In this document: positions 20,442 to 41,325 of the stretch, piece by piece | How the letters are laid out: the number at the start of each line of letters is the position of its first letter | Position numbering within the stretch: position 1 is the first letter of the stretch | Source: Candidatus Latescibacterota bacterium | GTDB taxonomy: Bacteria > Latescibacterota > UBA2968 > GCA-2709665 | Assembly (NCBI GenBank): GCA_965222075.1 | Contig: OZ244937.1 | Coordinates: 3,424,001-3,488,000 of the forward strand | Length of the DNA: 64,000 bases | Direction of reading: 5' to 3' | The notes under the pieces: generated by a model | The model's database searches: none | Told to the model about the DNA's origin: nothing | The model's input: the letters and a program-made list of their open reading frames with translations, nothing else | Position numbers and translations under genes: made by a program

Positions 20442-20584
20442 GGGGCTTTTCTGCGCGGTTCCGTTCACCGCCTTCGCCCAGAAACGCCCCAAAGGTCCGC
20501 AGGGCAGACCTGCCTGTGCCGTGCCCGGCACGGCAGACAGGAGCTTCCGTTTCCACCCCAGGGGCAATTTGCGGAAAAGCAGCC
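20442..20584. repeat. Dispersed palindromic repeat, copy 2, carrying a 33 bp insertion
   Basis: Aligns with 7353-7465 apart from the insert at 20509-20541. Confidence 0.75.
20509..20541 (+). repeat. CCTG..CAGG mini-palindrome (33 bp)
   Basis: cctgcctgtgccgtgcccggcacggcagacagg; absent from repeat copy 1. Confidence 0.85.
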
Positions 20585-20668
20585 GCTTAAACCCAAGAAA
20601 CACAACAAGTTCTGTTACAATCTGAAAGCCTATTTTCCAAGTAGCAGCTTCATAAAAAGGGGGATCCG

Positions 20669-21595
20669 ATGTCGATGGCATCTCAGAGCGCAGTGGTCGA
20701 GAAGCTGGATGGGGAAGATGGATCTGTTGAACTTCCCTGCCGGGTGCTGGGCAAGACGGGCGAGCGCGTGCCGATCCTGGGGTACGGCACAGCGCCTGGC
20801 GGTATGGGGTTGAGCGATGAAGAGGCGATTGCGCTGATTCACAGGGCGATTGACCTGGGAGTTACCTGTATGGACACGGCACCGGGGTACGGACGAGCGC
20901 ATGTGCAGCTGGGGACGGTGATGGCAGAGCGGCGTGAGGAGGTCTTTCTGGTGACCAAGACGGGTGCGGATGATGCGGAAAAGGCGCTGGAGATCCTGGA
21001 GCAGAGTCTGAAAGATCTGCAGACCGAGCAGGTGGATCTGACCTACGTCCACTCCCTGGGCAACCGGGATGTGGACCGGGTGCTGGCTGTGGATGGGTCT
21101 CTGGCGGGCCTCCGAGAGGCGCAGCGGCGAGGGTGGACGCGTTATGTGGGGTTTTCGGCGCACAATACGCCCTGGAAGGCGGCCAGGGCGCTTGAGGAGG
21201 CGGATGTGGATGTGGTGATGCTGGCGATGAATCTTGCGGACCGGCACACGTACAATTTTGAAGAAGCGGTCCTGCCCCTGGCCCGCGAGCGTGGGGTGGG
21301 GGTGGTGGCGATGAAGGTCTACGGCGGGGCGCTGGAGATGAAATACGACCGTCCGACCCCTTCGGCGCTGGCAGCACACGGCGCACACGACCACCAGGCT
21401 GCCCTGAATTATGCGCTGGGCCTGCCGGGGGTGGCAACGGCGGTTGTGGGGGTGTATACCGGGGCGGAGTTGATCCAGAACCTCGAATGGGCTCGAAATC
21501 ACACGCCCCTGTTCGCTGAAGCGGAAGCCGGGCTGGAGAAGCTGGGCAGGGAGATTGCCGCCGACTGGGGGGCGCACTACGGCTCGGTACGATAG
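20669..21595 (+). CDS. Aldo/keto reductase
   Basis: DTAPGYG, FLVTK, YVGFSAH and AMKVYGGG motifs. Confidence 0.9.
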   Translation: MSMASQSAVVEKLDGEDGSVELPCRVLGKTGERVPILGYGTAPGGMGLSDEEAIALIHRAIDLGVTCMDTAPGYGRAHVQLGTVMAERREEVFLVTKTGADDAEKALEILEQSLKDLQTEQVDLTYVHSLGNRDVDRVLAVDGSLAGLREAQRRGWTRYVGFSAHNTPWKAARALEEADVDVVMLAMNLADRHTYNFEEAVLPLARERGVGVVAMKVYGGALEMKYDRPTPSALAAHGAHDHQAALNYALGLPGVATAVVGVYTGAELIQNLEWARNHTPLFAEAEAGLEKLGREIAADWGAHYGSVR

Positions 21596-21648
21596 AAGCT
21601 GCTGCTTCGGAGTGTAAGTGCTGCTCAACTTTCGTAGTAACACATTCT

Positions 21649-22089
21649 TCAGCAGCAACTTCTCAGAGATTCGGCGCTCCATCGCTCTTTCGGTGGATAC
21701 CACCGTCCCTGACCGAGCAACTGGTCTACCACCGCCGCAAATTCTGCTGTCATGGCTTCTCGGAAGATGCGAGATTTCCTCACGGATCGGCTGACTCCTC
21801 CCGGGTACTTTCGCCAGGTCGCAGGGGCATCCCGCTGTACGCCCTCCATCTCCAGCCGACGCCAGATCGTTGATTCCATCTCTGCGGCGTCTTCGGCCGT
21901 AAACGCGCGCACCTTGACGTAGCCCCGGGTGCAGAGCTGCTCAAGGTCCTGTTCGTTCAGTGGTCCGTCAGTCGGCGATGTGTTATTTGTCTCTGAGCGA
22001 AAGGATTCCAAATACTTCCCCCGGACACCAGGACCGAGATCTCCACGGCGATATCCTGGACGCAGCTCGTCTGGATCAGCCTTCTTCAT
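21649..22089 (-). pseudogene. Chimera of a BrnA-like antitoxin 5' fragment and a truncated PhyH-like dioxygenase N-terminus
   Basis: First ~100 bp are near-identical to the 5' part of 28459-28686; then LNEQDLEQLCTRGYVKVRAF...DAPATW, which ends abruptly. Confidence 0.6.
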
Positions 22090-22142
22090 AGATTCTCCTG
22101 TTGACGTCCACTGCCTGTAGCGCCTTGGCAGACGGCGTTGTC

Positions 22143-22397
22143 TTACAAAGACTGCAGCATGGCTTCAGCTCCGATTTCCGCTCGCTCTACCTCGTAACCT
22201 GCCGATTTCACATTTGCGATGGCTGAACGAATAGCTGCTTCCAGGGAGTCCCCCTCTCGGTGAAAATCAATCGAGAACACACCGTTGCAGATCCCTGGTG
22301 TTCCATCGTCACAACCGGCCTCGAACAATTCGTCTGCAATCTCTTCGGTCAGCTCGAATTGTCCTTTGAGAATCAAGGTAAAACCATATTTGGTCAT
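22143..22397 (-). CDS. Putative antitoxin (HicB-like)
   Basis: ELFEAGCDDGT...FHREGDSLEAAIRSA; downstream of a HicA-like gene. Confidence 0.6.
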   Translation of the reverse strand: MTKYGFTLILKGQFELTEEIADELFEAGCDDGTPGICNGVFSIDFHREGDSLEAAIRSAIANVKSAGYEVERAEIGAEAMLQSL

Positions 22398-22423
22398 TGG
22401 GCTTAACCTTTCCAATTTACAGT

Positions 22424-22654
22424 CTACAACATGTGATGCGGGCAACGGTCAATAGCCCGACGGATGTCTTTGGCATGGTCTTCAGGACTCTTTGGGGTTG
22501 AGTATACAGCTCTCGCACAGCCAGTCTGATCGCTCAGTGGGCAATACAAGCGGCCCCAGGTGTGGGCACGTGGTCCCGCTTTCCGAACCGTCCAGCCATG
22601 GTCTAATGCGTAAGCAATGGCTGCACGAATATGCTTATTGGGATGATCTGACAC
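22424..22654 (-). CDS. Putative HicA-like toxin
   Basis: HPNKHIRAAIAYA..GWTV...HTWG...STP. Confidence 0.6.
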   Translation of the reverse strand: MSDHPNKHIRAAIAYALDHGWTVRKAGPRAHTWGRLYCPLSDQTGCARAVYSTPKSPEDHAKDIRRAIDRCPHHML

Positions 22655-22746
22655 TGGATTCTTATAACGTCATTTATGTTTTGGCTTGATTTCTTCGTGC
22701 GCGATTTGTTGAAGTGGGGTCTGAGAGCTTTTTTTGCGCCAGTTTT

Positions 22747-22829
22747 GCATAACGTTTCTCCGGTTTGCGAACCGCGCAGCGGTTGCGCGGAGGGGCGGAT
22801 GCCCCGTAGCCGGGGGCACGGTGTTACAG
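22747..22829 (-). other. attC site 1
   Basis: GCATAAC...GTTACAG; arms partly mismatched. Confidence 0.7.
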
Positions 22830-22900
22830 GATGTGCCAGTTCAGGATATTGGGCTCCCAGCTTGCTACGGACGGCAAGACCGCTACATAAAAGATACCAC

Positions 22901-23680
22901 TCAGTTTCGATCTATCCCTAATATTGCAGGTAGGTCAGCCAATGAAGTAATTTCGTGGTCAGCTTTGATCTCAGTGTCGTTCATCAGACCTTCACGATTC
23001 AGCCAGACCGCATGCGCTCCGGCCTCACGCGCTCCGGCAACATCGTTTTCCAGGGAATCCCCCACGTGTAATAGCTGCTCCAGCGGACAGCACGCCCTCC
23101 GTGCGGTGATCTGGAAGATGCGTCGATCGGGCTTCTCAACACGCACATCCTGGGAAAGGACAGCAAAGACAAACCGGCCCTCAAGCCCACAGCGGTCGGG
23201 GTAACTATTCCCATTGGACAAAAGTCCGATCTTGAAATGAGGCGCTAGAATGTCAAGAGCAGGCAAGACATCCTGATACAACTCAATATCTTCGAAACGA
23301 TGCTTCAGATATATCTCATTCAAATGAACAGCCAGACTGCGGTCCTCACAGCCAACGCGTTCAAGCGTCCTCTCAAATGCAAGTCGTCTGATCTCCTCAA
23401 GATTCCAGGTCTTGCCCTTCACTTCCTCGGCAAGCCGATTGCGAATCACAATCATTTCGTCCACCGTAAGGGCCACAGCTCGCTCTGCCGGAACGTGCCT
23501 ACGCAGTTCCACTAACGTGTGCTTTAGTGAATGTCTCATGACCTTCTGAAAATCCCACAAAGTCATGTCGCCATCAAAAGAGATCGCTGAAATTCGCAAG
23601 GTACTCGCCTCCACTAAATGGACAAAGATGCCTCGGCGTATGATGACGACGGTTCTGCCGCTTCCAGAGCTGGGTGGCAC
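22901..23680 (-). CDS. HAD family hydrolase (cassette)
   Basis: FDGDMTL, LSNG, KPD, HVGDSLENDV; true start may be GTG 23614. Confidence 0.88.
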   Translation of the reverse strand: MPPSSGSGRTVVIIRRGIFVHLVEASTLRISAISFDGDMTLWDFQKVMRHSLKHTLVELRRHVPAERAVALTVDEMIVIRNRLAEEVKGKTWNLEEIRRLAFERTLERVGCEDRSLAVHLNEIYLKHRFEDIELYQDVLPALDILAPHFKIGLLSNGNSYPDRCGLEGRFVFAVLSQDVRVEKPDRRIFQITARRACCPLEQLLHVGDSLENDVAGAREAGAHAVWLNREGLMNDTEIKADHEITSLADLPAILGIDRN

Positions 23681-23683
23681 TTC

Positions 23684-23804
23684 CTATAACGTTTCGCCGA
23701 TTCGCGAACCCCGAGCTCGGCCGCTGAGCCTGTCGAAGCGTGTCGAAGGGTTGCCCTTAGGGCCAAGGCGCGAATGCGCCGCAGCGCAAAACGTGATGTT
23801 AACT
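23684..23804 (-). other. attC site 2 (with nested hairpin insertion)
   Basis: CTATAAC...GTTAACT. Confidence 0.85.
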
Positions 23805-23849
23805 GCTGGCGACCCTTTTTTAGGAAATCCTTCAGTATGCATAGGATCG

Positions 23850-24281
23850 TCAGCTTTCCATTAGGGCTTGTTTGACCCGGTCTGCATATGAATCCAATTC
23901 CTCATCAGGGATACGATCTAGCCACCGTGGATAAACTCTCAATAAACCATCGTCTACTTTTCTAGGATGGATATGAAAATGCACGTGGGGGACTTCCTGG
24001 TGAGCACCTGGCCCATTGCTCTGCCATATGCTTAATCCGTCTAGCTCGAAGGCTTTTCTGACGGTTCGAGAAAGTAAGATCATAGCTTTCATAATCTCAG
24101 ATCCTGTTTCCTCTGACAGGGCATAGATGTCTGGAAAGTGCTCTTTGGGAATGACCAGAATATGCCCAGGGTTTGCTTGCCTTGGATCTATCAGCGCGAT
24201 GACAGAATCCGACTCGTATACCACCCTCGCACTCTTAGTTCCCTCCACGATTTCACAGAAGACACATCTTGATTCATCCAT
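23850..24281 (-). CDS. HIT family protein (cassette)
   Basis: CVFC, GHILVIPK, HVHFHI. Confidence 0.92.
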   Translation of the reverse strand: MDESRCVFCEIVEGTKSARVVYESDSVIALIDPRQANPGHILVIPKEHFPDIYALSEETGSEIMKAMILLSRTVRKAFELDGLSIWQSNGPGAHQEVPHVHFHIHPRKVDDGLLRVYPRWLDRIPDEELDSYADRVKQALMES

Positions 24282-24377
24282 ACATCCTTCACCTTGCTTT
24301 GTGCAAGAGATATAATGACGTACGAAAAGGCTCTCCGCGGTAATGGGTGTGTGCTATTCTTTGGTTTTTTCGCTTGC

Positions 24378-24471
24378 AGTTAACGTTCTGGCCACTTGCG
24401 AACCCGCGCAGCGGGTTGCCGAATGGCCGGAGGGAGCGAACGCGCCGGAGCCGCAGCCCGTCGTGTTATGT
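24378..24471 (-). other. attC site 3
   Basis: AGTTAAC...GTTATGT. Confidence 0.85.
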
Positions 24472-24487
24472 GTAGTTGCAGTCCCGG

Positions 24488-25333
24488 TTATCGCCGGCCT
24501 TGCCATGCATGGCAAGGCCGGAAATGGGCTGATACCTCAAACTTCAATCTGGCTTTCTTCCTGCGAAATGCTAAAGCAGTTTCGTAGTGCTTGGTGATCG
24601 ATCCTCCGTAGTTCTTGTTTATCAGGTCAGCGATACCATCAAATAGGTGCGTGCGATTGAATTCGGGCAGCGCGATGTGGTCAGAATAGGTGCCAATGAG
24701 TTTGATGTACTGTTCCGCAGAATAGTTCGCTGTCCACGCGTACACTCGGTGGATAGGATCGGCAAAAGCGGTAGTTCCGGGTTCTGGGGACTCTGATGTC
24801 GTCGGAGTACTGGGATCCCGAGGGGAATCTGAAACTACATAATGCTTGCTATAAACTTCCTGGACTTCCGCAAAGAAACCTTCGTGTTTTCTTACGTGTT
24901 GGTTGGAGAAGATGGCCAATGATCCCCTGGCCTTCAGGGTGTCACGGGCTTTAATGAATCTGACTCTTGGACTCACCCAGTGGAATGCAGTCGCGGAGAT
25001 CACAAGGTCAAACTTGCTAGCCGAGTCCCAATCTTCGAAAGGACACAGGACGAAGCAAACGTTCTTGTAGTTGTTGAGTCGCGCCCTCGCAACCTCGATC
25101 AAATCTTGGCCAATATCCAAACAGGTCATTTCGCAACCGATGGTGGCAAATAATCTCGAAGCCTGTCCGGTTCCACACCCGACTTCCAGGATTTTTCCGC
25201 TTCTATCCATTCCGGAGAGGTCCAAAACATCCCTGACAAGCTCATCAGGGTATCCGGGCCTCACTTCGTCATAGAGCGAGGCAACGGTATTGAAAGTGGT
25301 TTTGAGATCAGGGCGGGGCATTAGAATTCCCAT
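24488..25333 (-). CDS. Class I SAM-dependent methyltransferase (cassette)
   Basis: LEVGCGTG, SATAFHW. Confidence 0.9.
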   Translation of the reverse strand: MGILMPRPDLKTTFNTVASLYDEVRPGYPDELVRDVLDLSGMDRSGKILEVGCGTGQASRLFATIGCEMTCLDIGQDLIEVARARLNNYKNVCFVLCPFEDWDSASKFDLVISATAFHWVSPRVRFIKARDTLKARGSLAIFSNQHVRKHEGFFAEVQEVYSKHYVVSDSPRDPSTPTTSESPEPGTTAFADPIHRVYAWTANYSAEQYIKLIGTYSDHIALPEFNRTHLFDGIADLINKNYGGSITKHYETALAFRRKKARLKFEVSAHFRPCHAWQGRR

Positions 25334-25383
25334 GATTTGGGTTTAGGCGGCGCAGGGAGGCGTCGCTCTGGGACTACAATTGC

Positions 25384-25468
25384 ACATAACGTCCCGGCTG
25401 TTCCTGAACCGTGTAGCAGTTGGGTCAGAAGGAGCCAAGCGACTGGAGCCAGGAACAGCCTGTTATGT
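25384..25468 (-). other. attC site 4
   Basis: ACATAAC...GTTATGT; GGCTGTTCCTG/CAGGAACAGCC arms. Confidence 0.85.
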
Positions 25469-25534
25469 GTCTGTAGCAGTTTGCGATCGGAAAAGCGATA
25501 GAGAGGCGACCATCACCCTTCTGTTTTGTGTCTT

Positions 25535-26070
25535 TCAGGGTTTTACAGCCTGAGCAAAGAACAGACTCTGAGAATAATCGTCATACACCTTCCACTTAAA
25601 GATTTCAAAACCTGCTGTCTCGACTTCCTGAACCAGACTCTCTGGCAAGCCCCAGAAACGCGTTGCGATTCCATTCTCTATTTTGCATCGGGTCACAGGA
25701 TCAAACGGATAATCTGCATTCTTTGGCTCACCACATTTTGTCATGACGATGAATAACCCCTGAGACTTCAGTACACGATGCACATTCTTCAAGAATGCAA
25801 TGCGATCTTCGCCGATGATACAATGTAGGCAAAGGGCGTCTATGATCACGTCGAAAAACCCATCCTCATACGGCAAATCGAGGACGTTCCCAACTCGGAA
25901 ATCCGCTCTCAAATTCTGTTCCTCACCCTTTTCCTCTGCCCAAGCAATCGCCGTCGGAGAGATATCGATTCCATAGGCTTGAAAGCCCTTCTCCGAAAGG
26001 AGCAAAGAAAGATCGCCGGCACCACATCCTAACTCAAGCAAAGTTCCCGATTCCAACTCCAACTCTCGCA
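25535..26070 (-). pseudogene. SAM methyltransferase cassette gene, 5'-truncated and fused to an IS4 remnant
   Basis: LELGCGAG, GIDIS, FDVIID; native N-terminus missing. Confidence 0.75.
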
Positions 26071-26108
26071 ATACATTGGTCACTTTGCCGAAGTTCCAGG
26101 TCGTCCGA

Positions 26109-26139
26109 CCTGCCTGTGCGTTGCACGCACGCAGACAGG
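26109..26139 (+). repeat. CCTG..CAGG mini-palindrome (31 bp)
   Basis: cctgcctgtgcgttgcacgcacgcagacagg at GA^T. Confidence 0.9.
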
Positions 26140-26178
26140 TCAAGCGAGATGGTGAAGTCACACTTGACTGGCAACAGA

Positions 26179-26209
26179 CCTGCCTGTGCGTTGCACGCAC
26201 GCAGACAGG
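26179..26209 (+). repeat. CCTG..CAGG mini-palindrome (31 bp)
   Basis: Identical to 26109-26139, at GA^T. Confidence 0.9.
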
Positions 26210-26375
26210 TGCAAGATCAAGTCGACCACCAGATCATAGGGCAGATGAAATCCACTGAAGAAACGTTGAATCCTGCGATAGTTGGACTTCTGCTTGGCTT
26301 TGCCGTTGAGAACGTTGGCCAGTTTGCTGAAGTTCACTGTTGTCAGTTTGATGAGGGATAGGATGAACGCGCTGA

Positions 26376-26457
26376 CCTGCCTGTGCGTTACCGCACGCTT
26401 GCCTGCGCGCAGCGCGTCTGCCTGTGCCGAAGGCAGACAGGCAAGCAGGCAGACAGG
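26376..26457 (+). repeat. Triple-nested CCTG..CAGG mini-palindromes (30+27+25 bp)
   Basis: Outer 26376-26397 + 26450-26457; middle 26398-26416 + 26442-26449; inner 26417-26441. Confidence 0.85.
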
Positions 26458-26901
26458 TGAATTTCACTCGGGCTTTATGCCAGAGAAAATGCCATTGCAT
26501 TACCTCTTGCAATTGGTTAACTTGGGGAGACATGGACCTGTGCCTTTCTTATGAATGAGTGGTTGGATTGTGGCCAACCCAAACCTAACTCATTTCATCT
26601 AAAAACGCAGGTCTTTTCTATTGAGTGTGTAGGAAATCGCGGGCGCTTTGAAAGGGCCTTCAGACAGCATAAATGCCTGCTCGACATTTCCCAAATCCCA
26701 TTTTGGCCCCTGAGGCTGCTCATTGAGACCAAACATCGAGGATACTTTAAATGTTTGGCCTGAAAAGCAAGAAAATTCACGATAACAAATTTCGTAAGTG
26801 ATTTTTTTTCAGACTGTTATTTCGCCTGTAAAATCCTACACACTCTTTTCTATTTTGTCGTGTACCTTGATCCGGTCCATAAATCCCAAAACTGCCATGG
26901 C

Positions 26902-27006
26902 ACATAACGTTCTGGCCACTTGCGAACCCGCCGAGCACAGCGAAGGTGGGTTGCCGCTAGGCCGAAGGGAGCGAATGCGACCGAAGCGCAAGTGGACGTG
27001 TTACAC
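26902..27006 (-). other. attC site 5
   Basis: ACATAAC...GTTACAC; CCACTTGCG/CGCAAGTGG arms. Confidence 0.88.
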
Positions 27007-27067
27007 GCCGGCGCCTTGATAGCGAAGCTCATTTGGCGCAGGAGTTGCGCACCCGGCATCTCGCCAA

Positions 27068-27772
27068 TCAATCCCCAGCCAGCAGGAATCCGATCCGCCA
27101 TCTACCTTTGAGATACTCGAACTGGGCACGGTAGCCGATGGGGCTTCTACAATCTGAGGCCAAAACGTAACCAGAAACTCCATCCAAGGTCGTGACCCTC
27201 TTCCATTCTCTTCCGGCCTTGTCTCGCGGATTCGGCTCGTTCACATCTTTGACGATTTCGTAGCTCAGAGTATCAATTGCCGCTGAACTTAGGCTCATCT
27301 CGGGCCGCAGTGGAGCAGCCTCTGACTTGATAGCCGAATAGAAATAGGCGTCGTAAGCGTCTGGCCATCGAGAAAAGAAGTATGGAATTATGAAAACTGT
27401 GCAGCTGTCATTCTCACACGTCGCGCCAAGTGCCAGCAATTCCTCTAGGGTGCTCCACAACCTAGACTTCTTTGGCTTCGATCTCAGGTTCCAGTAATCG
27501 AGAAACCCTTCCCTTCCGAATCGTCCTCCGTAACTAACGTGAATATCTGGTTTCAGATGATCTAGGACAAAATCGAGGTCTTTCCGCTCAACGGCTGAGG
27601 CCAACTCTGAGCGAAAGTTACCGAAGGAGTCGCTGAGATAAGTTTCGTCAATCGGTAGCAGTCGAGTAACACCCGTACCTGCCAGGAGACTCAAGGGTAG
27701 GGCTATAACCAGGAACGTAGCTCTGAGTATCATGTCAAATCGTTGGTGCGAAGGTAGTTGGTTTGTCTTCAT
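27068..27772 (-). CDS. Secreted hypothetical protein with SH3-like C-terminus (cassette)
   Basis: Signal-like hydrophobic stretch; WKRVTTLDGVSGYV...SPIGYRA. Confidence 0.7.
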   Translation of the reverse strand: MKTNQLPSHQRFDMILRATFLVIALPLSLLAGTGVTRLLPIDETYLSDSFGNFRSELASAVERKDLDFVLDHLKPDIHVSYGGRFGREGFLDYWNLRSKPKKSRLWSTLEELLALGATCENDSCTVFIIPYFFSRWPDAYDAYFYSAIKSEAAPLRPEMSLSSAAIDTLSYEIVKDVNEPNPRDKAGREWKRVTTLDGVSGYVLASDCRSPIGYRAQFEYLKGRWRIGFLLAGD

Positions 27773-27807
27773 ACACCTGTCGGGTGCCTCCGACTTCCGA
27801 CGCTGGC

Positions 27808-27889
27808 GTGTAACGTTTCAGTGCCCCCGAACCGCGAAGCGGTTGGGCGAAGGGCCGAATGGCCCGAAGCCGGGGGCACAATGTTAGGC
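27808..27889 (-). other. attC site 6
   Basis: GTGTAAC...GTTAGGC; GTGCCCCCG/CGGGGGCAC arms. Confidence 0.9.
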
Positions 27890-27899
27890 GAAGTCTCCG

Positions 27900-28328
27900 T
27901 TACTGAAAGCGGACCACGCATTTGTATCGTTGAACACCCGGATATTTCTCGCCGAGAGGTTCTATTTCAAATCCACATGATCTGTAGAAGCCAACGGCAT
28001 CGTCGTCAGTTTCTGCCTCTAACTGGCCAAACCTCAGATCGTCACGAACGAACGCAATCAGTCTCCGTCCTATGCCTACACCCCTCCATTCAGGATGAAC
28101 GGCGATGTGGGTGATGATACACCGGCTTCGATCGGATGAATCCAAACGTACGATTCCAACGGGCGCGTCCTCGCATCTGGCAACCCATAACGTCGTGAGG
28201 GAGTTCGAAGTGCAAGACTGCATGAGCTCTCCAATAGCAGCCTCTGTGGGTGCACCAACGGACTCGGCAAGAATACTCGCCACATCCTTTGCGTCCGACT
28301 CATCAGCATGAAAACGATGGATCTGCAT
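27900..28328 (-). CDS. GNAT acetyltransferase (cassette)
   Basis: IAVHPEWRGVGIG, AETDDDAVGFYRSCGF. Confidence 0.9.
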   Translation of the reverse strand: MQIHRFHADESDAKDVASILAESVGAPTEAAIGELMQSCTSNSLTTLWVARCEDAPVGIVRLDSSDRSRCIITHIAVHPEWRGVGIGRRLIAFVRDDLRFGQLEAETDDDAVGFYRSCGFEIEPLGEKYPGVQRYKCVVRFQ

Positions 28329-28340
28329 CTTGGAAATGTC

Positions 28341-33407: not shown

Positions 33408-33525
33408 ATTAGGCCAACTCTCGAAGTGACTCCCAAGATTGTCGGGACGGATTCCCTCAAGGGTACTCTGGTATCTAATTGACATCGCGTCGTGTGCGTT
33501 CATGTGAATTTTTACTCGCCATGTC

Positions 33526-33606
33526 GTCTAACGTCCCCGCCGTGCCCGAACCGCGAAGCGGTTGCGCGAAGGGCGTAGCCCGAAGCCGGGCACGGACGTG
33601 TTAGAC
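33526..33606 (-). other. attC site 11
   Basis: GTCTAAC...GTTAGAC; CCGTGCCCG/CGGGCACGG arms. Confidence 0.92.
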
Positions 33607-33663
33607 GGCGTTGGCCAAATCGTCACCACGGAGGAGATTTTTGGGCACACGGTTGCAGAGCGT

Positions 33664-35025
33664 TCAAAATGCCTCTTTCCCAACGATCTCGTAAACCCTC
33701 GCCGGATGGCGGTGATCTTTGACCTTATTGAATAGCGCTTTGGCCTTTTCCAGCATCCCGGCCCGTCCATAGAAGTAGATGAGGTTGCCAGCCTCGTTTG
33801 GTCTCCCAGTGAGGTCCCATACCTTCTCCTGCACGACCACGGCCCTGCCCCAATCACCCCTGTGGAATGCCAAACAGGACCCCATTTGCCGAAGTGCAAC
33901 GTAGGCCCATACGGTCTTTTGGCCTAGTCCGTACATGGTCTCATACACCGGATAGGCCTCATCCCACCGGTTCTGTCGAGCCAGTGACAAAGCGAGGTAG
34001 TTCAGGCACTGCTGGTCTTCAGGGGCCAAAGTGACGGCATGGCGGGCAACTTCCTCCATCTCTTCAAAGTCGCGTTTCCACAAAAACATCTGCGCCTTGG
34101 CAGTGAGAGCAACTATGTCATCAGGGTCCTTTGCAAGCCGCAGACTGCATAGCTCCAGGCATTTCTCGATTGCCGTGGCCTGCTTTTGCTGGTCGCCCGC
34201 CCATAAAACGGTAAGCTCGAACGCAACATCGATGGAGTCCGGCGCCGCTTTCGCGGCTCGTTGAAGGGTTGCCGCCTCTTCCTCGGAGGGGCCCTTGATC
34301 GGGTCATATGTCCGTCCGAGCTCCATCAATGCCTCAGGATGGTCCGGGGACACCTCCAGTGCTTCCCTGAAGCGTGCGCGTGCCTCATCCATCCTCATGT
34401 ACAATCGATCCCTCTTGCCCTGTTCCAAGAGTCGGGCAATGGTCCGTGCTGCGAATCCTTCGGGCAGATCATGCTTGCTCCTGTCATCTCTTGCCATGCG
34501 GGTGACCTCCTCCTTAAGCTGCCTGCGCGCCCTGTATAGCCGCTGTTTCACACCTGCAGGGGTCGTTCGTACCAGAAGAGCCACATCCTGAATCGAATAC
34601 CCTTCCAGATAATGCAGTGTAAACGCCTGGACGCTTTTCGCAGGAAGCCTTGAAAACAGTTCCTGGAACGCTGCATTCCGGATAACAGGCTGCTCTGGAT
34701 GTTCTCTGAGATCCGTCACCTCGACAACTGACTTCGCCACGGCTTGGTGGCGGCGATTGTCCCTCAACCTGTTGAGGCAGATGTTGCGAAGTATCTGCCC
34801 CACCCAGGATGAGAATCGAGAGTGCTCCTTCAGAGCCTCAAGCTGTTTGAAGGCCTTCAAGAATGCGTCCTGAAGAGCATCCTGTGCCTCTTCCTTAGCG
34901 TGCACATAACTTAGCGCCTGCAGGTAGAGGCGATCCTGATGGCGTAACACCAGGGCTTCGAATGCAGAAAGGCTGCCAGAGAGTGCGGCGGCGACTAGCT
35001 GGGCATCTGTGGATAGGCTTTCCAT
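33664..35025 (-). CDS. ECF-type sigma-70 factor fused to TPR repeats (cassette, copy A)
   Basis: AFEALVLRHQ, DALQDAF, FSSW, GVKQRLYRAR; C-terminal TPR-like helices. Confidence 0.88.
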   Translation of the reverse strand: MESLSTDAQLVAAALSGSLSAFEALVLRHQDRLYLQALSYVHAKEEAQDALQDAFLKAFKQLEALKEHSRFSSWVGQILRNICLNRLRDNRRHQAVAKSVVEVTDLREHPEQPVIRNAAFQELFSRLPAKSVQAFTLHYLEGYSIQDVALLVRTTPAGVKQRLYRARRQLKEEVTRMARDDRSKHDLPEGFAARTIARLLEQGKRDRLYMRMDEARARFREALEVSPDHPEALMELGRTYDPIKGPSEEEAATLQRAAKAAPDSIDVAFELTVLWAGDQQKQATAIEKCLELCSLRLAKDPDDIVALTAKAQMFLWKRDFEEMEEVARHAVTLAPEDQQCLNYLALSLARQNRWDEAYPVYETMYGLGQKTVWAYVALRQMGSCLAFHRGDWGRAVVVQEKVWDLTGRPNEAGNLIYFYGRAGMLEKAKALFNKVKDHRHPARVYEIVGKEAF

Positions 35026-35117
35026 CGCTCTACCATTACGACACCTCAGGAGAGAGGAAGGTAACGCCGAGGAAGGATTCTTGCAGTAATCTCCGCCCGT
35101 TCGTGAGGGCAAATGCC

Positions 35118-35196
35118 GTATAACGTTCTCGGCACCCCCGAAGCCGCGAAGCGGTTTTGTGCGGAGCGAAGCGAAGCCGGGGGTGCCGTGTTAACC
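35118..35196 (-). other. attC site 12
   Basis: GTATAAC...GTTAACC; CGGCACCCCCG/CGGGGGTGCCG arms. Confidence 0.92.
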
Positions 35197-35260
35197 GATG
35201 TGGAGGTTTGTCGGATCACCAAAAAGTTCAAGAGGCAACCATCACCCCTTGCTTTTTTGT

Positions 35261-35566
35261 TCATTCATTTCCTGCCAGTGCTTCTGACCAACGCCTGGCC
35301 ATTGTCCTCAATTCTTCCTCATGGGCTGGCCAATCGTGAAGCGTGGCAGGATCAAAATCAGCACCATTCGGCCAGACGAGTGTATGCACCTCAGGATCAA
35401 TACGCACCTCATTAAAAAGCAATATATCCATCAGAGGTCCGAACAACTCGCCCTCAAGAACTGGACGAAAATCGATAACTCGAGTCGTTTCATCGTTGAA
35501 TCTGACTTTGATCTGATAGGTCCCAACAATCTCAAATGAAACGACTCGATAGATTGGATGACTCAT
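35261..35566 (-). CDS. DUF2442 protein (putative antitoxin), copy A
   Basis: IKVRFND...F.PL...TLVWPNGADFDP. Confidence 0.85.
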   Translation of the reverse strand: MSHPIYRVVSFEIVGTYQIKVRFNDETTRVIDFRPVLEGELFGPLMDILLFNEVRIDPEVHTLVWPNGADFDPATLHDWPAHEEELRTMARRWSEALAGNE

Positions 35567-35577
35567 TCTATCCTCCC

Positions 35578-35847
35578 TTAATGAAGCGGATCGATCGGCA
35601 AGGGAGGATGCCCAGATTGGAGCCGACCCCAATCTTCAAGGAGCTCCTCCTGATGCAACTCCGCCCAGGCTTCGACGAATCGTTGCTGACGGCGTGGCAA
35701 AGTCCCTGCGATCAATTCAATGGTATCCACAGCGTAAACGGCCACTTCATCTTGATAATAGGCGTGAAAATGAGGCCGATGGTGCTGTGTTCTCGGTTCG
35801 GCAAACATGCGAATGATGATTCCGAAAAACCGAGAAATTTCAGGCAT
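35578..35847 (-). CDS. DUF4160 protein (putative toxin), copy A
   Basis: MPEISRFFGIIIRM...PHFHAYY...WAELHQEELLEDW. Confidence 0.88.
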   Translation of the reverse strand: MPEISRFFGIIIRMFAEPRTQHHRPHFHAYYQDEVAVYAVDTIELIAGTLPRRQQRFVEAWAELHQEELLEDWGRLQSGHPPLPIDPLH

Positions 35848-35997
35848 TTGTTTTCCTTGCGATATGGATTTTATCGATGAAACCCTGCGGGAAATAAACC
35901 GGATTATGCATGGGTAAGCAAAATCCAAATTGGGATGAATGGGAGTCTGTTTTTGCCCCTCAGAGCTTGACCAATTAGCCCTTAAAACCTCCATGTC

Positions 35998-36081
35998 GGT
36001 TAACGTTCATCTGCCCCTGAACCGGCACAGCCGGTTGGGCGAAGGCCCGAATGGGCCGAAGCCAGGGGCAGGGTGTTATGC
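35998..36081 (-). other. attC site 13
   Basis: GGTTAAC...GTTATGC. Confidence 0.9.
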
Positions 36082-36201
36082 GGCCCCGAAGGGCCGGAGC
36101 GCCCGCAGGGTGCGGAGGGTGTGCATTCTACGCCTTGAGGACAGAAGTGCTTGGACTCTCATGCGGTGAAAAGATAATTCCCAAAGAATGAATTGCATTG
36201 G

Positions 36202-36930
36202 CTATTTGGCTTTCTCGATGACAGCTATATATCTTGGCCCCTCAGAATCAATAAAAGTAGAGGCCCTCCAACCTGTGCCAGCCAAAATATCGTGCAACTC
36301 CGCTTTGGACACAAACAGGTAATCAATCCACGGCGTTCTATGGATCTTATAGCGAATGCGCATCTTCACCTGACCCCCCATCCGACCTTGCTGACGATTG
36401 GCTCTGTGATAGGCATGGTGAAGAGGGTTCGAAGTCTGATAGGGATCCAAGGTCTCTGCGATAATGCGTCCTTTGCCAGTAGTCATGTGATAGAACTTAC
36501 GCAACAGCCACCTTGCCCGTCTGTAATTGCTCATCAGACCAAAATTGTTGCCCATCATGAGGAGGGTATCGAAGTGACCCAGGCGGGCATTCAATTGAGT
36601 GATCGACAATCTACGCACCTGCTTCACACCCCTCAATCGGCAGACCTTCACCGCCAGAGAAGATACATCGATCCCTATCACATCGTGTCCTTGATCCTGC
36701 AAATAGAGGGACATCCTCCCCGCGCCGCAGCCAATGTCTAAGGTACGCCCTATGACGTATCTCATGGCCTCCTGTTTCTGAGAGGGCCACTCTTCATAAG
36801 AAGAAAAATAGGCACTGGCCAAACTAGCGACATCAACGTACCCGTCGCTGCGCTCCACAATTTCGTATCTGTCATCCCCGCCTAAGAAATCGTAGAGTAG
36901 TTGACCGAATGCATCTGCATGTTGTTTCAT
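36202..36930 (-). CDS. Class I SAM-dependent methyltransferase (cassette)
   Basis: LDIGCGAG, GIDVS, FDTLLMMGNNFG. Confidence 0.9.
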   Translation of the reverse strand: MKQHADAFGQLLYDFLGGDDRYEIVERSDGYVDVASLASAYFSSYEEWPSQKQEAMRYVIGRTLDIGCGAGRMSLYLQDQGHDVIGIDVSSLAVKVCRLRGVKQVRRLSITQLNARLGHFDTLLMMGNNFGLMSNYRRARWLLRKFYHMTTGKGRIIAETLDPYQTSNPLHHAYHRANRQQGRMGGQVKMRIRYKIHRTPWIDYLFVSKAELHDILAGTGWRASTFIDSEGPRYIAVIEKAK

Positions 36931-37038
36931 GAGTTCACCGAAGATAGCCTCTTATTGGGGACATCTTGCATGGGGAATTCACTATCGGAATTTGAAGTAG
37001 GTAAAGCGTGGGGACAAATTTATCTTATTGCACATGCC

Positions 37039-37137
37039 GCATAACGTTCTCGCGGGCTGCGAACCTGCCGTAGCGAAGCGGAGGCAGGTTGGGTCGGAGG
37101 CGCGAATGCGCCGAAGCCGCAGCCCGTCGTGTTATGC
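37039..37137 (-). other. attC site 14
   Basis: GCATAAC...GTTATGC; CGGGCTGCG/CGCAGCCCG arms. Confidence 0.9.
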
Positions 37138-37298
37138 ATTGCTGGGGCAGGCCTCCGTCACCAAGAACCGTTCAGGGCCAACATACAGCGCACAACATTG
37201 TGTATGTTGCATCTTCCGACTCAGGTTCAATTTTCGATGGGTCTTGTAGCGGGGCGATGGGTAAACGAACAGAGGACTCTGCTTGCAAGGGGTCTCCG

Positions 37299-38291
37299 CT
37301 ATCCCAGTATAACAGCTATTCGGTTGTTCATATATTCGGTGATTTCCTTCAACTCCTGTTTGTTGTACGCCTCTTCAATGAGCCCCCAGCAGGTCAGGTA
37401 CCCAAGCGGATAGCGTAAACGATAGTACTCCAGGTGCAGCTCGTGGTCCTTATGAAGAGGGGCATCGTAGGATTTCCAAAAAGCCTCAAGACAGGAAGCC
37501 ATCAGATCCTCCCGATCGAATCCTAGATCATAGACCTCGTGGGAGAAGTGGTTGTACAATCTAGAAATATCCTGAATCCCGTACCCCGGCCCAACGCCCT
37601 CGAAGTCCAGCAGTCCCGTTACGGTATCTCGCGAAATCATGATGTTGGTTGCAGAGAAATCCCCGTGGGTTAGACAAGGCTGGACGTCTTCGCTAAAGAC
37701 CTCAATCCCTTTCCGGACCCAGCCCTCCAAGCGAGAACCCCATTTGGCAAAAGGGGTTTGAAAACTGGCTTTCACAATCTCTAATCCACGCTGTAGCTCA
37801 TATTCACGAGCTGTATGGCTGGTGTCGATTCCCTCCCGGGGTTTGACCCTGACCTCACCGTCTTTATATGCCAATCCTCCACCAAAGTGAGAGAAAGCAC
37901 TGATTTGGTGGAACGAAGAAAGTATTGTTCCAATCTGGGAATAGACAGCAACGGCTTCCTGGCGGGATAAACTCTCGCCCGCGTCTCCGAGGTTCTGCCC
38001 GTTGATGTACTCTTTGGTTACAAACTCCCCGGGCATGAGGCCAGCACGTAACCCTGTTTCGAGCACTTTGGGAACAGGAAGCTCAGTCTTGTCCTCCAGT
38101 ACGTTGATGACGAGGAGCTCGTGCTCAAGAGCATTAAGTTGACCGGGCGGGACATATTGGACCACAAATGGAGCAGTGTCCCTTGGGTGCACGAGATAAG
38201 TGGGTTTGCAGATGCCGCCTTCCAATTGCTCGAAATGCGCAATCGGTCTCCGGATAACCTCCTCAATGACATCAAGAGTCACTTCAGCCAT
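37299..38291 (-). CDS. Aminoglycoside phosphotransferase (APH)-family kinase
   Basis: LPVPKV, LTHGDFSATN, LLDFE. Confidence 0.85.
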   Translation of the reverse strand: MAEVTLDVIEEVIRRPIAHFEQLEGGICKPTYLVHPRDTAPFVVQYVPPGQLNALEHELLVINVLEDKTELPVPKVLETGLRAGLMPGEFVTKEYINGQNLGDAGESLSRQEAVAVYSQIGTILSSFHQISAFSHFGGGLAYKDGEVRVKPREGIDTSHTAREYELQRGLEIVKASFQTPFAKWGSRLEGWVRKGIEVFSEDVQPCLTHGDFSATNIMISRDTVTGLLDFEGVGPGYGIQDISRLYNHFSHEVYDLGFDREDLMASCLEAFWKSYDAPLHKDHELHLEYYRLRYPLGYLTCWGLIEEAYNKQELKEITEYMNNRIAVILG

Positions 38292-38321
38292 TTAGCCCCG
38301 TGTTGAGTTTGTTGTGCGGGA

Positions 38322-39113
38322 TCAGGATATCAGCTGCTTGGCCAAATCAATACCAGGATCATATCCCTCCAAAGCTGGTTCACCCTGAGAAACAGCAATG
38401 GTCGTGACCATTCGGTAGACCAGCGCGCGGATCAGTAGCTGGGGGAAGTGTTCAACGTGAGAGACATGCTCAATTAGACCTGACGGATCTGCATCCCGCC
38501 AACACACGGCATCCGCTACAACGATAGCAGACGCAAACCCAACTGGACGCCAATAGGGCGAAAAATCGATCACGGCCGGGGAAAGTCCTTCAGCGAAGAG
38601 GATATTCTCCGTAAGGTCACCGTGAATAAGCTGCGATGTGGTTACCATCGGGGAGCGCATGCGGAGTAACTCGGTGAGCCGCTTGTTTGCGAATGGCGGC
38701 TCTATCTCCTCCCAAGCTACAAAATCACCAAGTGACCAAGGATCATCTGAGCGATCGTCCAGGAATGGCGCCCGAGGCAGGTGCTCAATTGCCTTATGGA
38801 ATCGGTCTCCGGTGAGAATTACTTCTGCCCATCTTTCCTGCTCAGGGTGTTCGCCCTCAACCGCTTCTTGGGCACACCACCCGTCAACAACCCATCGTCC
38901 ATCGAAGGCCCGTACGGGAAGTGGCAGCCTAAAGCCTTCTGCTTTAACTGTTGATAGATGGTCGGCGAACCAACGCCAAACGTCAGGACTTTCGTCCGGT
39001 TTGAGGATAAGGTCTCCTGCCAGCCAGCAGCAACCCTCCCCGCCAGCTAGTTGTACCAAATCTGCGGTAACATTGAACGCTTGAATTACCCTATCAGGGG
39101 GCCGGGGGCTCAT
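38322..39113 (-). CDS. TIGR02569-like APH-fold phosphotransferase
   Basis: DGRWVVDGW, QLIHGDLTENILF, VIDFSPYWRP. Confidence 0.8.
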   Translation of the reverse strand: MSPRPPDRVIQAFNVTADLVQLAGGEGCCWLAGDLILKPDESPDVWRWFADHLSTVKAEGFRLPLPVRAFDGRWVVDGWCAQEAVEGEHPEQERWAEVILTGDRFHKAIEHLPRAPFLDDRSDDPWSLGDFVAWEEIEPPFANKRLTELLRMRSPMVTTSQLIHGDLTENILFAEGLSPAVIDFSPYWRPVGFASAIVVADAVCWRDADPSGLIEHVSHVEHFPQLLIRALVYRMVTTIAVSQGEPALEGYDPGIDLAKQLIS

Positions 39114-39184
39114 CTGTTATGATTCGGCAAGAGGTGGACATTCTTAGTTTGTGCGCAACTGTGGTGCTGTCTTGCCCCAGTTTT

Positions 39185-39301
39185 GCATAACGTTCTCGGC
39201 ACTCCCGACCTGCCGGCCTGTCCTCCGGAGCTGCGTAGCAGCGAAGGAGGGAGGCAGGTTTCTGCGGAGCGTCAGCGAAGCTCGGGAGTGCCGTGTTAAG
39301 C
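39185..39301 (-). other. attC site 15 (with inserted hairpin)
   Basis: GCATAAC...GTTAAGC; CGGCACTCCCG/CGGGAGTGCCG arms. Confidence 0.88.
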
Positions 39302-40344
39302 GCATGTGCTGGTTTTGGTGTCAGGAAATCGACTGGCGGTGCCGATCAATGGATCTTAACGAGCGAAATTCGTCCCAATGTTTAATCGAGGAAATATCAC
39401 CTGATGTCTTTATGGATCCGGGCCGATCATCTGATCTGTCGAAGTAGACCGCTTGCATACCGAGCTGCTTTGGTGCAGTATAATCGTTCTGTAGGCTGTC
39501 ACCGATGAATAAGACTCTATTGGCTTGATCAGCTTGCACATTCGCAAGCCCCTGTTGATAAATCTGTTTACCTGGCTTTTTCCATCCGAAGTCCGAGCGG
39601 GCGCGGTCCCATAGTGTGACAAAAAAGATAGCATAACATCCTCAATAATTTCTTATGGTTAGAGGAAAGTTTGGGAAATTTACTTCTAACCAACAAGAAT
39701 CAGAAAGGACGTTATGCTGGATCATATCATAGATCAAGTGACAGAAAAAGTCAACCAAAAGTTGCCTAAGATGGTGAGCGACTTGCAAGAGAGTCTTTCG
39801 TTTGCCGACTTGGAGCATGGCTTGATCGGTTTGCTCCAGGAGGTGGTGGGCATCGTCGTGAGTCCGGTGTTGAATCAGGTTTTTCAGGATGAGGCCTTGC
39901 TGTTTGGGCTGCGTCAGGCAGCCGGTAGTATGGGCTACAGATATAAGGAACATCGGCCTTTGACCGTACGGATTTTGGAAGGTGTAGAAGTTGAAGTCTC
40001 TTCGCCCTATTTCGTTAAGCGGGGTCGCAAACGGGGCAGGAAGAAGCGGGGTCCCAATGGTCGAGGGTGTCATCTGTTATTGGATGTGCTTGGGTTTATC
40101 GGTCAGTGCAGTCCGGAGTTTGTAGATGAAGCTGTGAAGTTGGCCTTGTTATGCCCCTCCTTTGAGGTGGCCACTCAGGTGTTGGATGCCCGTCAGATAA
40201 AGCTGGACAAAAAAACCCTTCGAAGATTGTGCAAAGCTTTAGGCGAATTGGGTCTGGAGCAGAGAGCCACGATTGCTCTAAAAGATGAGCTCTCCTTTTC
40301 AGGTCGCACGGTGTATATCGGCATCGATGGGGGTCGGATGCGGA

Positions 40345-40371
40345 CCTGCCCGCGCGCAGCGCGCAGGCGGG
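40345..40371 (+). repeat. Mini-palindrome variant (27 bp, in frame)
   Basis: cctgcccgcgcgcagcgcgcaggcggg at GA^T. Confidence 0.8.
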
Positions 40372-40534
40372 TGCGTGAGCCCAAGCGGGGTCGAAAGCCG
40401 AAGGGAAAGAAATATCCCCGATATGATACACCTTGGAGAGAACCCAAGTTGTTTACCATCTACATGTTGGACGAAAAAGGTCGCGTCGAAAAATCGTGGA
40501 CGCCTATCCACGATGCGACTCGGGGCAATGCCGA

Positions 40535-40561
40535 CCTGCCTGTGCGGTGCACGCAGACAGG
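40535..40561 (+). repeat. CCTG..CAGG mini-palindrome (27 bp, in frame)
   Basis: cctgcctgtgcggtgcacgcagacagg at GA^T. Confidence 0.9.
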
Positions 40562-40853
40562 TTTGATGTTTGAGATGCTGGAAGCTACCCTTTTGGAACT
40601 GCCCCTGCAACAGGCCGATCGGGTCGTGTTTATCGCCGATGGGGCAGAATGGATCTGGCCGAGGGTAGAGCGTCTGATCTGGAGGTTGGGGGTGCCTCCA
40701 AGCAAGGCGATCCAGATCCTCGACTATTACCATAATAGTGAAACCCTCTTTGAACTGGTGCAACTCCAACCGAAGCTTAAAGAAAAGGCACAACGTGCCC
40801 TGTATGAGACGTGGAAGACCTGGATGTGGAATGGGGAGCTTTTAAAACTCCGA

Positions 40854-40889
40854 CCTGCCTGTGCGTGCTGTCTCACGCACGCAGACAGG
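40854..40889 (+). repeat. CCTG..CAGG mini-palindrome (36 bp, in frame)
   Basis: cctgcctgtgcgtgctgtctcacgcacgcagacagg at GA^A. Confidence 0.9.
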
Positions 40890-40969
40890 AAAGAAGTGCT
40901 CCAGCAGCTTCGCGGGAAAAAACGAAAACAGGCCATCACATCCCTGAACCATTTCGACCGTCATGCGCA

Positions 40970-40994
40970 CCTGCCTGTGCCGATGGCAGACAGG
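40970..40994 (+). repeat. CCTG..CAGG mini-palindrome (25 bp, frameshifting)
   Basis: cctgcctgtgccgatggcagacagg at CA^T. Confidence 0.9.
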
Positions 40995-41035
40995 TCGAAT
41001 GCGCTATCCTACCTTCAAAGAACAGGGCCTTCCCA

Positions 41036-41062
41036 CCTGTCTGCGTGCCACGCACAGGCAGG
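41036..41062 (-). repeat. CCTG..CAGG mini-palindrome (27 bp, opposite orientation)
   Basis: cctgtctgcgtgccacgcacaggcagg; splits the LPIGSG motif. Confidence 0.9.
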
Positions 41063-41300
41063 TCGGAAGTGGACACGTCGAAAGCGCCATCCGTCGTGTC
41101 ATCAATCTTCGGATCAAAGCACCAGGCACGTTCTGGAAAAAAGACATGGGCGAATACTTCCTGTTTCTGCGCTCACAGTTGATCTGTGGAAGATGGCCTA
41201 TCTTCTTCCAGAATGTCACAGGACGATACCGAACGGGTGAGTTTGCCCAACATCTCTTTCCCTCTTCTCCGAAAATGGGTTTGCTCAAGACAGGGACAGA

Positions 41301-41325
41301 CCTGCCTGTGCCGCCGGCAGACAGG
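41301..41325 (+). repeat. CCTG..CAGG mini-palindrome (25 bp)
   Basis: cctgcctgtgccgccggcagacagg at GA^T. Confidence 0.9.

Follow-up and report, generated by a model that had tools for sequence, protein, structure and literature searches.

It has long been asked how very short palindromic repeats multiply, among them the repetitive extragenic palindromic (REP) sequences and the small dispersed repeats (SDR) of Nostoc, and for most such families neither the insertion event nor the enzyme has been proven. The SDRs of Nostoc are said to have been described by Elhai et al. (Genome Res, 2008), with families SDR1 to SDR8 in heterocyst-forming cyanobacteria. They are about 20 bp long and possibly mobile (PMC2884548); SDR5 may insert at HIP1, and SDRs are reported not to have been found beyond Nostocaceae (PMC5861425). 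REPs and their paired form, the REPINs, are described as imperfect palindromes of 20 to 40 nt in high copy number, mostly extragenic and clustered (PMC3116915, PMC6006769, PMC3733652), with the tetranucleotide GT[AG]G marking the 5′ foot of the hairpin (PMC6006769; PMC3733652), and intragenic in-frame REPs are reported, including in uvrA of other bacteria (PMC3733652). The Ssn-related motifs or CGTC REPs are hairpin repeats of about 30 nt that occur in many phyla and are recognized as single-stranded DNA (ssDNA); the cognate GIY-YIG single-strand nuclease, Ssn, is described as modulating transformation and not as a transposase (Chenal et al. 2025, PMC11893778). Here, we describe a family of hairpins in a 64-kb window (the whole stretch of 64,000 nucleotides analyzed, positions 3,424,001 to 3,488,000 of contig OZ244937.1, assembly GCA_965222075.1) of a Candidatus Latescibacterota bacterium. 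The element inserts exactly, without duplication or deletion of bases, between a purine and a pyrimidine and preferentially after C-N-S-R; it lands in either chromosomal orientation, and its targets include repeats, its own relatives, genes, and phage DNA. We consider it probable that these hairpins form a superfamily of gene-less mobile elements of 19 to 36 nt that are moved as a folded single strand by an enzyme acting in trans.

The hairpin was searched with the pattern CCTG[CT]CTG-N8-22-CAG[AG]CAGG, which has 8 exact matches in the window and none in 100 dinucleotide-preserving shuffles. Beyond the pattern matches, sequence inspection yields a divergent 27-mer and a three-fold nest, and together these give the 12 copies at 10 loci that the initial annotation had counted; its observation that, in oriented copies, GA precedes 9 of 10 and that A and A/T flank all of them is likewise found in the window flanks. 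The source genome is a single contig of 5,360,005 bp with 59.3% G+C, and the genome-wide pattern search found 240 strict minimal hairpins. They fall into the asymmetric family A (CCTGCCTGTGC...GCAGACAGG; 102 copies, 52 on the plus and 50 on the minus strand) and the symmetric family B (CCTGCCTGC...GCAGGCAGG; 134 copies), with another arm combination in the last 4; a third form with CCTGCTTG/CAAGCAGG arms is found mainly in nests. The outer arms, CCTG[C/T]CTG and CAG[A/G]CAGG, are constant, and the inner stem-loop varies but stays paired, giving 45 distinct sequences in family A and 86 in family B within an overall length of 19 to 36 nt. Among the 8-mers closing perfect short hairpins in this genome, CCTGCCTG ranks first (158 cases vs. 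48 for the next unrelated family). The predicted DNA fold of the 33-mer at 20509 has a free energy of −13.1 kcal/mol (z −3.67) and that of the three-fold nest −31.6 kcal/mol (z −4.68), and for the short 25- to 27-mers the gain over shuffles is modest (z −0.8 to −1.4). The hairpin as such therefore stands as first annotated, but the C/A mismatch and TG bulge ascribed to it are an alternative register, allowed by the CCTGCCTG/CAGACAGG direct repeats; in the minimum-energy register of most copies, the 5′ CCTG is unpaired and GA forms the bulge. A looser gapless finder (CCTG..CAGG, 9-nt arms, at most 1 mismatch) gave 560 hits vs. 117 for the reversed control and missed the bulged family A, and it was set aside. 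Truncated copies do not reveal a direction of synthesis: orphan arms number 39 (left) and 99 (right), by our estimate about 40 of the 9-mer right arm are expected by chance, and the lists are mixed. The genome also holds an unrelated second palindromic repeat family, with arms GGCCTTTTTCTTG...CAAGAAAAAGGCC and about 47 copies.

Base-exact insertions can be read from an insertion sequence (IS) at 39600-41401 (+), whose ends follow from the alignment with its paralog and which carries six hairpins. There is one paralog, at genome positions 2831294-2832990, and the two copies are ~99% identical but differ by four hairpins (27, 27, 25, and 25 nt), all present in the window copy only. These recent insertions are the divergent hairpin at 40345-40371 (+) with arms CCTGCCCG...CAGGCGGG, a family A 27-mer at 40535-40561 (+), and two family A 25-mers at 40970-40994 (+) and 41301-41325 (+), the latter close to the right end of the IS. 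At each of the four loci (A^T), the hairpin separates an A and a T that adjoin in the paralog, with zero bases duplicated or lost. The other two hairpins, a family A 36-mer at 40854-40889 (+) and a reversed family A 27-mer at 41036-41062 (−), are common to both IS copies and lie in frame. The UPF0236-type transposase frame of the window copy (39714-41240; Pfam UPF0236) is frameshifted by the 25-nt inserts, and its translation is out of frame downstream of the 25-mer at 40970; in the paralog, a 505-aa frame remains intact and runs across both shared hairpins (36 and 27 nt). A second host is a dispersed noncoding repeat of ~220 to 260 bp at 20345-20600 (no strand assigned; delimited by a blastn coverage profile with up to 46 matching copies at its center), located between a ceramidase-like open reading frame and an aldo/keto reductase open reading frame. 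It contains an exact pattern match of family A, the 33-mer at 20509-20541 (+), and the same site is exactly empty in 13 paralogous repeat copies; one further copy carries the same 33-mer with a nested 27-mer, and another carries a 12-nt remnant.

For the 36-mer at 40854, the empty allele comes from a public contig (run X20, 263 nt, 186 + 77 letters) that joins 40853 directly to 40890, and joints lacking this 36-mer are also present in runs X15 and X17. The hairpin at 40345 is skipped in contigs of X15 and X18 and that at 41301 in a contig of X18, although public contigs without the hairpins at 40345, 40535, and 41301 may simply be the IS paralog. Record 6 of X15 spans 40890-41365 without gaps. 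This comparison covers contigs only; runs X1 to X14, which have small word shares, and uncovered parts were left aside. Altogether, hairpin-bearing sequence was found in contigs of 4 public runs from 3 studies. Clean empty alleles exist for 6 of the 10 window loci, so that precise removal restores the host sequence without a target site duplication (TSD), as the initial annotation had proposed; no empty allele was found for the copies at 26109, 26179, and 41036, and for the nest at 26376 the only paralog (genome positions 2932240-2932611) is also filled, with a 23-nt internal deletion. A BLAST search of the genome for adjacent flanks returned 36 (family A) and 172 (family B) element/paralog pairs with a gap of exactly 0, and also revealed one family nested inside another. 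Two peculiarities of the public contigs were seen in all four runs: a contig leads from 41072 back to 40344 across an identical 8-letter spacer (depth 15 to 46), a joint that probably stems from another locus with two adjoining hairpins, and the summed contig depth over 41064-41124 is 40 to 800 times that of neighboring bins, this 60-nt piece of the transposase gene being common to very abundant sequences in those samples.

Closer inspection of coding regions revealed 21 in-frame copies (5 of family A and 16 of family B) in long open frames with a coding signal on both sides. Pfam confirmed the host genes for all five frames scanned: a 1,922-aa double UvrA with two hairpin copies, PurL, the R subunit of a type I restriction enzyme (hsdR), a GT4 glycosyltransferase, and a UPF0236-type transposase. 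None of the 20 uvrA orthologs found (20 genomes of the family) carries the 36-nt copy, not even that of a same-genus genome at 96% identity, and the insertion site is clean (...GTGTA^TCGG...). In purL, the same-genus ortholog lacks two copies, a 33-mer (G^C) and a 21-mer (A^C), which together add 18 residues. The double-length UvrA-like protein (L017, G000:C1:1821500-1827268; 1,922 aa, two UvrA domain sets) is itself kept in 21 of 21 genomes of the family, alongside uvrA genes of ordinary size (930 to 1,050 aa). With the IS, repeat, uvrA, and purL alleles in hand, the description as an ultra-short, nonautonomous, hairpin-shaped element that inserts precisely and without TSD is supported. The hairpin family looks built for tolerance inside genes: 38 of the 45 distinct family A sequences are stop-free in all six frames (composition-matched shuffles, mean 14.4, maximum 22), as are 80 of the 86 distinct family B sequences (mean 40, maximum 52), and copy length is a multiple of 3 in 75/102 (A) and 109/134 (B). 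Because of these two properties, some copies persist in frame in housekeeping genes, and the insertions lengthen essential proteins by 7 to 12 residues.

Where copies survive was assessed by assigning sites to classes according to flank repetition and a crude codon-usage score, with 600 random sites as the baseline. Repeated DNA holds 52% of family A sites vs. 17% of random sites (enrichment, 3.1-fold for A and 1.95-fold for B), unique DNA without coding signal holds 35% vs. 16% (2.2-fold and 2.33-fold), and DNA with coding signal on both sides holds 4% vs. 36% (0.11-fold and 0.33-fold). Copies are also clustered, since 38 of 235 neighbor gaps are shorter than 200 bp compared to ~2 by a Poisson estimate (mean spacing, 22.7 kb), and neighbors within 1 kb are identical in variant in 6 of 63 pairs vs. 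1.3% of all pairs. The initial annotation had left a choice between targeting of IS transposases and survival only in neutral DNA. Targeting is not supported, with family A enriched 3.1-fold in repeats but also 2.2-fold in unique noncoding-like DNA. Survival in neutral DNA holds largely, as the depletion in coding DNA indicates, but the word "only" does not, since genome-wide there are in-frame copies in intact uvrA, purL, hsdR, and other genes. The IS specificity apparent in the window mostly reflects survival in dispensable DNA, most insertions into genes being lost, and the tendency of new copies to land near old ones adds to it.

The target was derived from a logo of 94 deduplicated family A sites. 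Position −4 is C in 73 of them (17 to 31 at control positions), position −2 is G or C in 80, position −1 is A or G in 89, and position +1 is C or T in 86, whereas at the mirror position, +4, just 33 sites have G. Positions −1 and +1 are complementary at 66 of the 94 sites, compared to 25% of random adjacent bases, and complementarity of the flanks stops at this first pair. The commonest left words are CCGA (18), CAGA (9), and CGCG (7). The right end of the element is CAGG, preceded by CAGA, and has a C at −4 by construction. Hence, the target of family A is directional, C-N-S-R^Y, when read on the CCTGCCTGTGC-bearing strand; the directional idea of the initial annotation survives in this sharper form.

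Of 151 genomes sampled from the phylum, 31 contain the same pattern (family A; 0 in reversed-pattern controls), with a patchy distribution within the family of the source genome, where six genomes of 97 to 98% completeness have 0 copies and five others have 34 to 92. Outside the phylum, the exact pattern occurs in at least 122 stretches of other named phyla, with hosts given in the records as Ca. Brocadia pituitae (a complete genome), Kuenenia, Methylomirabilis, Thermodesulfobacteriota, Zetaproteobacteria, Verrucomicrobiota, Lentisphaeria, Nitrospirota, Nitrospinota, WOR-3, and Syntrophomonadaceae; five other-phylum genomes hold 1, 1, 2, 2, and 14 strict copies. In IMG/VR viral contigs, the pattern is present in 61 stretches; those scanned encode terminase, capsid, and portal proteins, and phage contigs carry up to 4 hairpins in 27 kb. 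Among the other-phyla and viral matches listed, identical 27- and 30-mers turn up repeatedly, and the length is 24, 27, 30, 33, or 36 nt for 156 of 190 copies.

The remaining window copies lie between 26109 and 26457. Two identical family A 31-mers, the pattern matches at 26109-26139 (+) and 26179-26209 (+), are 39 bases apart and the sole two genome copies of that variant. The former lies within the first ~30 codons of a class I methyltransferase open frame, upstream of the Pfam domain. This frame, 25538-26200 (−), has its GTG start inside the hairpin at 26179 and reads through the one at 26109, and its Pfam domain does not begin until residue 55; translation probably starts farther downstream, the alternative being that the hairpins have supplied a new N terminus. 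The three-fold nest at 26376-26457 (+), delimited by sequence inspection, has a family A 30-mer as its outer copy, a CTTGCCTG...CAAGCAGG element (26398-26449) as its middle layer, and a family A-like 25-mer (26417-26441) as its innermost layer. It is held by a fragment of a repeated element at 26234-26631 (−), defined by a 91% identical paralog; the 99-aa frame of this fragment had no Pfam match, and by eye it looks like a transposase N terminus plus an IS end. Rfam finds nothing else above threshold in the window than a tmRNA gene at 1700-2064 (−; 205 bits).

How, then, might the hairpin move? Only the outer stem and its irregularity are constant, and the −4 C lies on one side of the asymmetric form, for which reason we propose that the element would be recognized as a folded single strand; from this it would follow that a structure-specific enzyme, provided in trans, breaks and rejoins one DNA strand. 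On the CCTGCCTGTGC strand, both junctions would then follow a word with C at position −4, the target word on the left and CAGG on the right. Such logic matches HUH Y1 transposition, yet the expected enzyme is missing or does not covary with the hairpin, and the mover would be neither a RAYT nor an Ssn-type nuclease encoded in the source genome. That an HUH Y1 transposase (RAYT/TnpAREP or IS200/IS605 TnpA) moves the hairpin as ssDNA to the 3′ side of a short word, as initially suggested, we regard as unlikely. IS608-type elements do insert without TSD after a one-sided tetranucleotide that resembles their own 3′ end, and the one-sided C-N-S-R word resembles the 3′ end of the present element (CAGG, CAGA). 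The unpaired 5′ CCTG at the foot of the hairpin furthermore recalls the REP tetranucleotide (PMC6006769), but the GT[AG]G foot itself is absent. A search of the source genome with PF01797 (Y1_Tnp) gave two matches, both IS200-type, one an intact tnpA (147 aa) and the other broken, and no RAYT. The intact tnpA (G000:C1:2071800-2072450) is flanked by CCCC..GGGG-type hairpins unlike the element (CCCCGCCC-AAA-GGGCGGGG and CCCCTTCC-AAA-GGAAGGGG), and this copy has no paralog in the genome that would delimit its ends or target word; ~31 hairpins in the genome have CCCCTCCC arms and may be its gene-less relatives. Neither Y1 gene of the source genome is flanked by CCTG hairpins, i.e., there is no REPtron, and the hairpin-flanked RAYT, TnpA, or nuclease gene that the initial annotation had proposed to look for was not found there. 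Nor do Y1 genes track the hairpins among the 21 genomes of the family: G151 has 32 Y1 matches and CCTG hairpins at control level (2 vs. 2), G105 has 5 Y1 matches and no family A copy, and G130 lacks a Y1 match despite its 92 family A copies, although this genome is fragmented and its copies may hitch-hike. RAYT-like genes are present in several relatives (G072, G124, and G101, and within larger frames in G051 and G135), but at 5 of the 6 loci inspected no CCTG hairpin lies within ~1.5 kb of them. In G051 (L235) and G135 (L236), the RAYT-like Y1 domain is embedded in a frame of at least 884 aa whose start resembles a DUF1156-type DNA methyltransferase, as if a transposase-like domain had been fused to a methylase or inserted in it. 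A quite possible, if tentative, alternative is a dedicated mover of an unrecognized family, or one borne by a phage or plasmid outside the chromosome, that recognizes and inserts the hairpin. The insertions are very recent, as the IS paralogs show, the hairpin is patchy among close relatives and occurs in genuine phage contigs, and the TSD-free transposase families searched are missing or broken in the source genome except for the single IS200-type gene (Y2_Tnp, one broken fragment; TnpB and IS110, none). Speaking against such a mover, no recurrent gene lies beside the hairpin in the 61 viral stretches, where the largest cluster comprises 6 loci of phage structural genes; a search for small nuclease frames within 400 bp of a hairpin in the source genome gave 3 regular-expression matches, none nuclease-like; and the genes bracketed by hairpins there are IS genes, a sigma factor, a response regulator, and similar genes, none nuclease-like either. 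GIY-YIG (PF01541) has a single match in the source genome, in a 629-aa frame that we take from its size and place to be uvrC, and no small, Ssn-like GIY-YIG gene was found there. Among the 21 genomes of the family, small GIY-YIG genes are present in hairpin-free relatives (G097, G105, G122, and G152) as well as in hairpin-rich ones and do not track the hairpin. A scan of genome contigs with the 16-nt core CCTGCCTGCAGGCAGG was discarded: it gave 119 stretches with unrelated flanks and a GIY-YIG-like frame near 1 of the 119, which was unconvincing, and as a 16-mer is by our estimate expected hundreds of times by chance in a collection of that size, the scan is uninformative.

The mover could also be a universal host enzyme that breaks and joins single strands, with type IA topoisomerase as the best fit, in which case the hairpin would be a transposase-free parasite: the enzyme would cut after C-N-N-N at both junctions and occasionally transfer the folded strand to a C-N-S-R site. 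Bacterial and archaeal topoisomerase I are reported to select cleavage sites that have a cytosine 4 nt upstream (PMC3467081), consistent with the −4 C at most left junctions and at the right end, CAGG^. A host enzyme would also explain how identical hairpins come to be present in many phyla and phages without a linked gene. The match is one of a single logo position, however, and we know of no case of topoisomerase-driven transposition. Since the −4 C is weaker outside the source genome, and since a universal mover fits poorly with close relatives that are free of copies unless these were never seeded, we consider both the general idea and its detailed cutting scheme distinctly improbable. Replication errors (a template switch to another copy and back) or gene conversion between repeats could make use of microhomology, because the C-N-S-R left word partly resembles the last four bases of the element, and copies do cluster, with neighbors more often identical. 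But the similarity amounts to only 1 to 4 imperfectly matching bases, all filled/empty pairs inspected have exact junctions, unique genes whose flanks have no homology to any donor have received insertions, both orientations occur, and the same sequence recurs across phyla, which makes this explanation very unlikely. An artifact of assembly or polishing of the long-read genome is hardly conceivable: short-contig assemblies from the public runs contain both the hairpin-bearing and the empty forms, the same elements occur in many independent assemblies, and in-frame copies leave long genes open. Nothing was found in favor of an artifact, which had been raised at the outset as a possible refutation, and as far as contigs can show it is refuted.

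Several observations weigh against our preferred reading of a folded single strand moved in trans. The searches yielded no mover, and that a single strand and an enzyme acting in trans are involved is what we infer. Copy numbers in relatives partly reflect hitch-hiking, and per-genome counts overstate the number of independent insertions; all 26 identical 28-mers of one relative (G072), for instance, belong to a single larger dispersed repeat. The one-sided target rule may be local to the source genome, because other phyla and viruses show a weaker and symmetric signal (left −4 C, 74/174; right +4 G, 74/174). GC skew places the origin at ~4.21 Mb and the terminus at ~1.34 Mb, and orientation relative to replication is weakly biased (62 vs. 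40, P = 0.04, with copies that are partly nonindependent); IS608-type elements have a much stronger bias. Finally, the coding/noncoding split is a crude codon-usage score and not a gene call. As for the repeat of G072 (L369-L394), the 28-nt hairpin sits at its center, and an element resembling a miniature inverted-repeat transposable element (MITE) has amplified the hairpin as a passenger.

How does the element compare with described systems? Like REPs, it is a short imperfect palindrome (236 strict copies), depleted in coding DNA and clustered. It differs from REPs in that it starts with CCTG, ends with CAGG, and has the flank logo C-N-S-R^/^Y instead of a GT[AG]G foot, in that the source genome has neither a RAYT nor a REPtron, and in that it is not species or lineage specific, identical 27- and 30-mers being present in many phyla and viral contigs. 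Unlike in REPINs, the unit gained or lost is a single hairpin and not a pair. The Ssn-related motifs share its size, hairpin form, and wide distribution, but neither the arms nor the flank logo of the present element contain the CGTC tag, and the source genome lacks a single-domain GIY-YIG gene, such small genes in relatives not following the hairpins. IS200/IS605 elements and their gene-less derivatives likewise depend on hairpins and insert without duplicating the target, beside a short fixed word on one strand; the word seen here, C-N-S-R, is one-sided but degenerate, and the strand bias relative to replication is weak (62:40). In those elements, which measure at least 100 nt, the two ends differ and carry subterminal hairpins, whereas one hairpin is the whole present element, and it is unlike the CCCC[T/G]CCC-AAA-GGG..GGGG hairpins of the resident IS200 copy. 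The Rickettsia palindromic elements (RPE) are several times longer. They resemble it as selfish palindromic DNA tolerated in frame in protein genes (PMC3733652). They are confined to one genus, and their sequences are unrelated to the present hairpin. A MITE of a DDE transposon, which would have terminal inverted repeats and a TSD, does not fit the zero duplicated bases in all filled/empty pairs read.

In the main texts searched, that of the RepRanger paper included, we found no description of this hairpin family. By analogy, the SDRs of Nostoc and its relatives would be the behaviorally closest system, with REPs also near: they are very small (~20 to 27 nt), considered mobile, and found inside other repeats, a likeness in size and behavior only. 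The present element is set apart by its occurrence in Latescibacterota, its CCTGCCTG-type arms, its presence in many phyla and phages, and its in-frame copies in housekeeping genes, a distinction drawn from descriptions of the SDRs. For the old question of how such repeats multiply, the source genome provides dated, base-exact insertions of a single 25- to 36-nt hairpin (in the near-identical IS copies, uvrA, and purL), from which the rule of a directional target, C-N-S-R^Y, can be read. Neither RAYT nor Ssn, the two published candidate movers, turned up when the genome was searched for them, and the mechanism is therefore directly testable. The lengthening of proteins and the carriage by phages across phyla matter for annotation and for the reading of indels in metagenome-assembled genomes. 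In sum, the hairpin is REP/SDR-like, and it stands out from known systems by having no recognizable mover, by its small size, by its reach across phyla and phages, and by its tolerance within essential genes.

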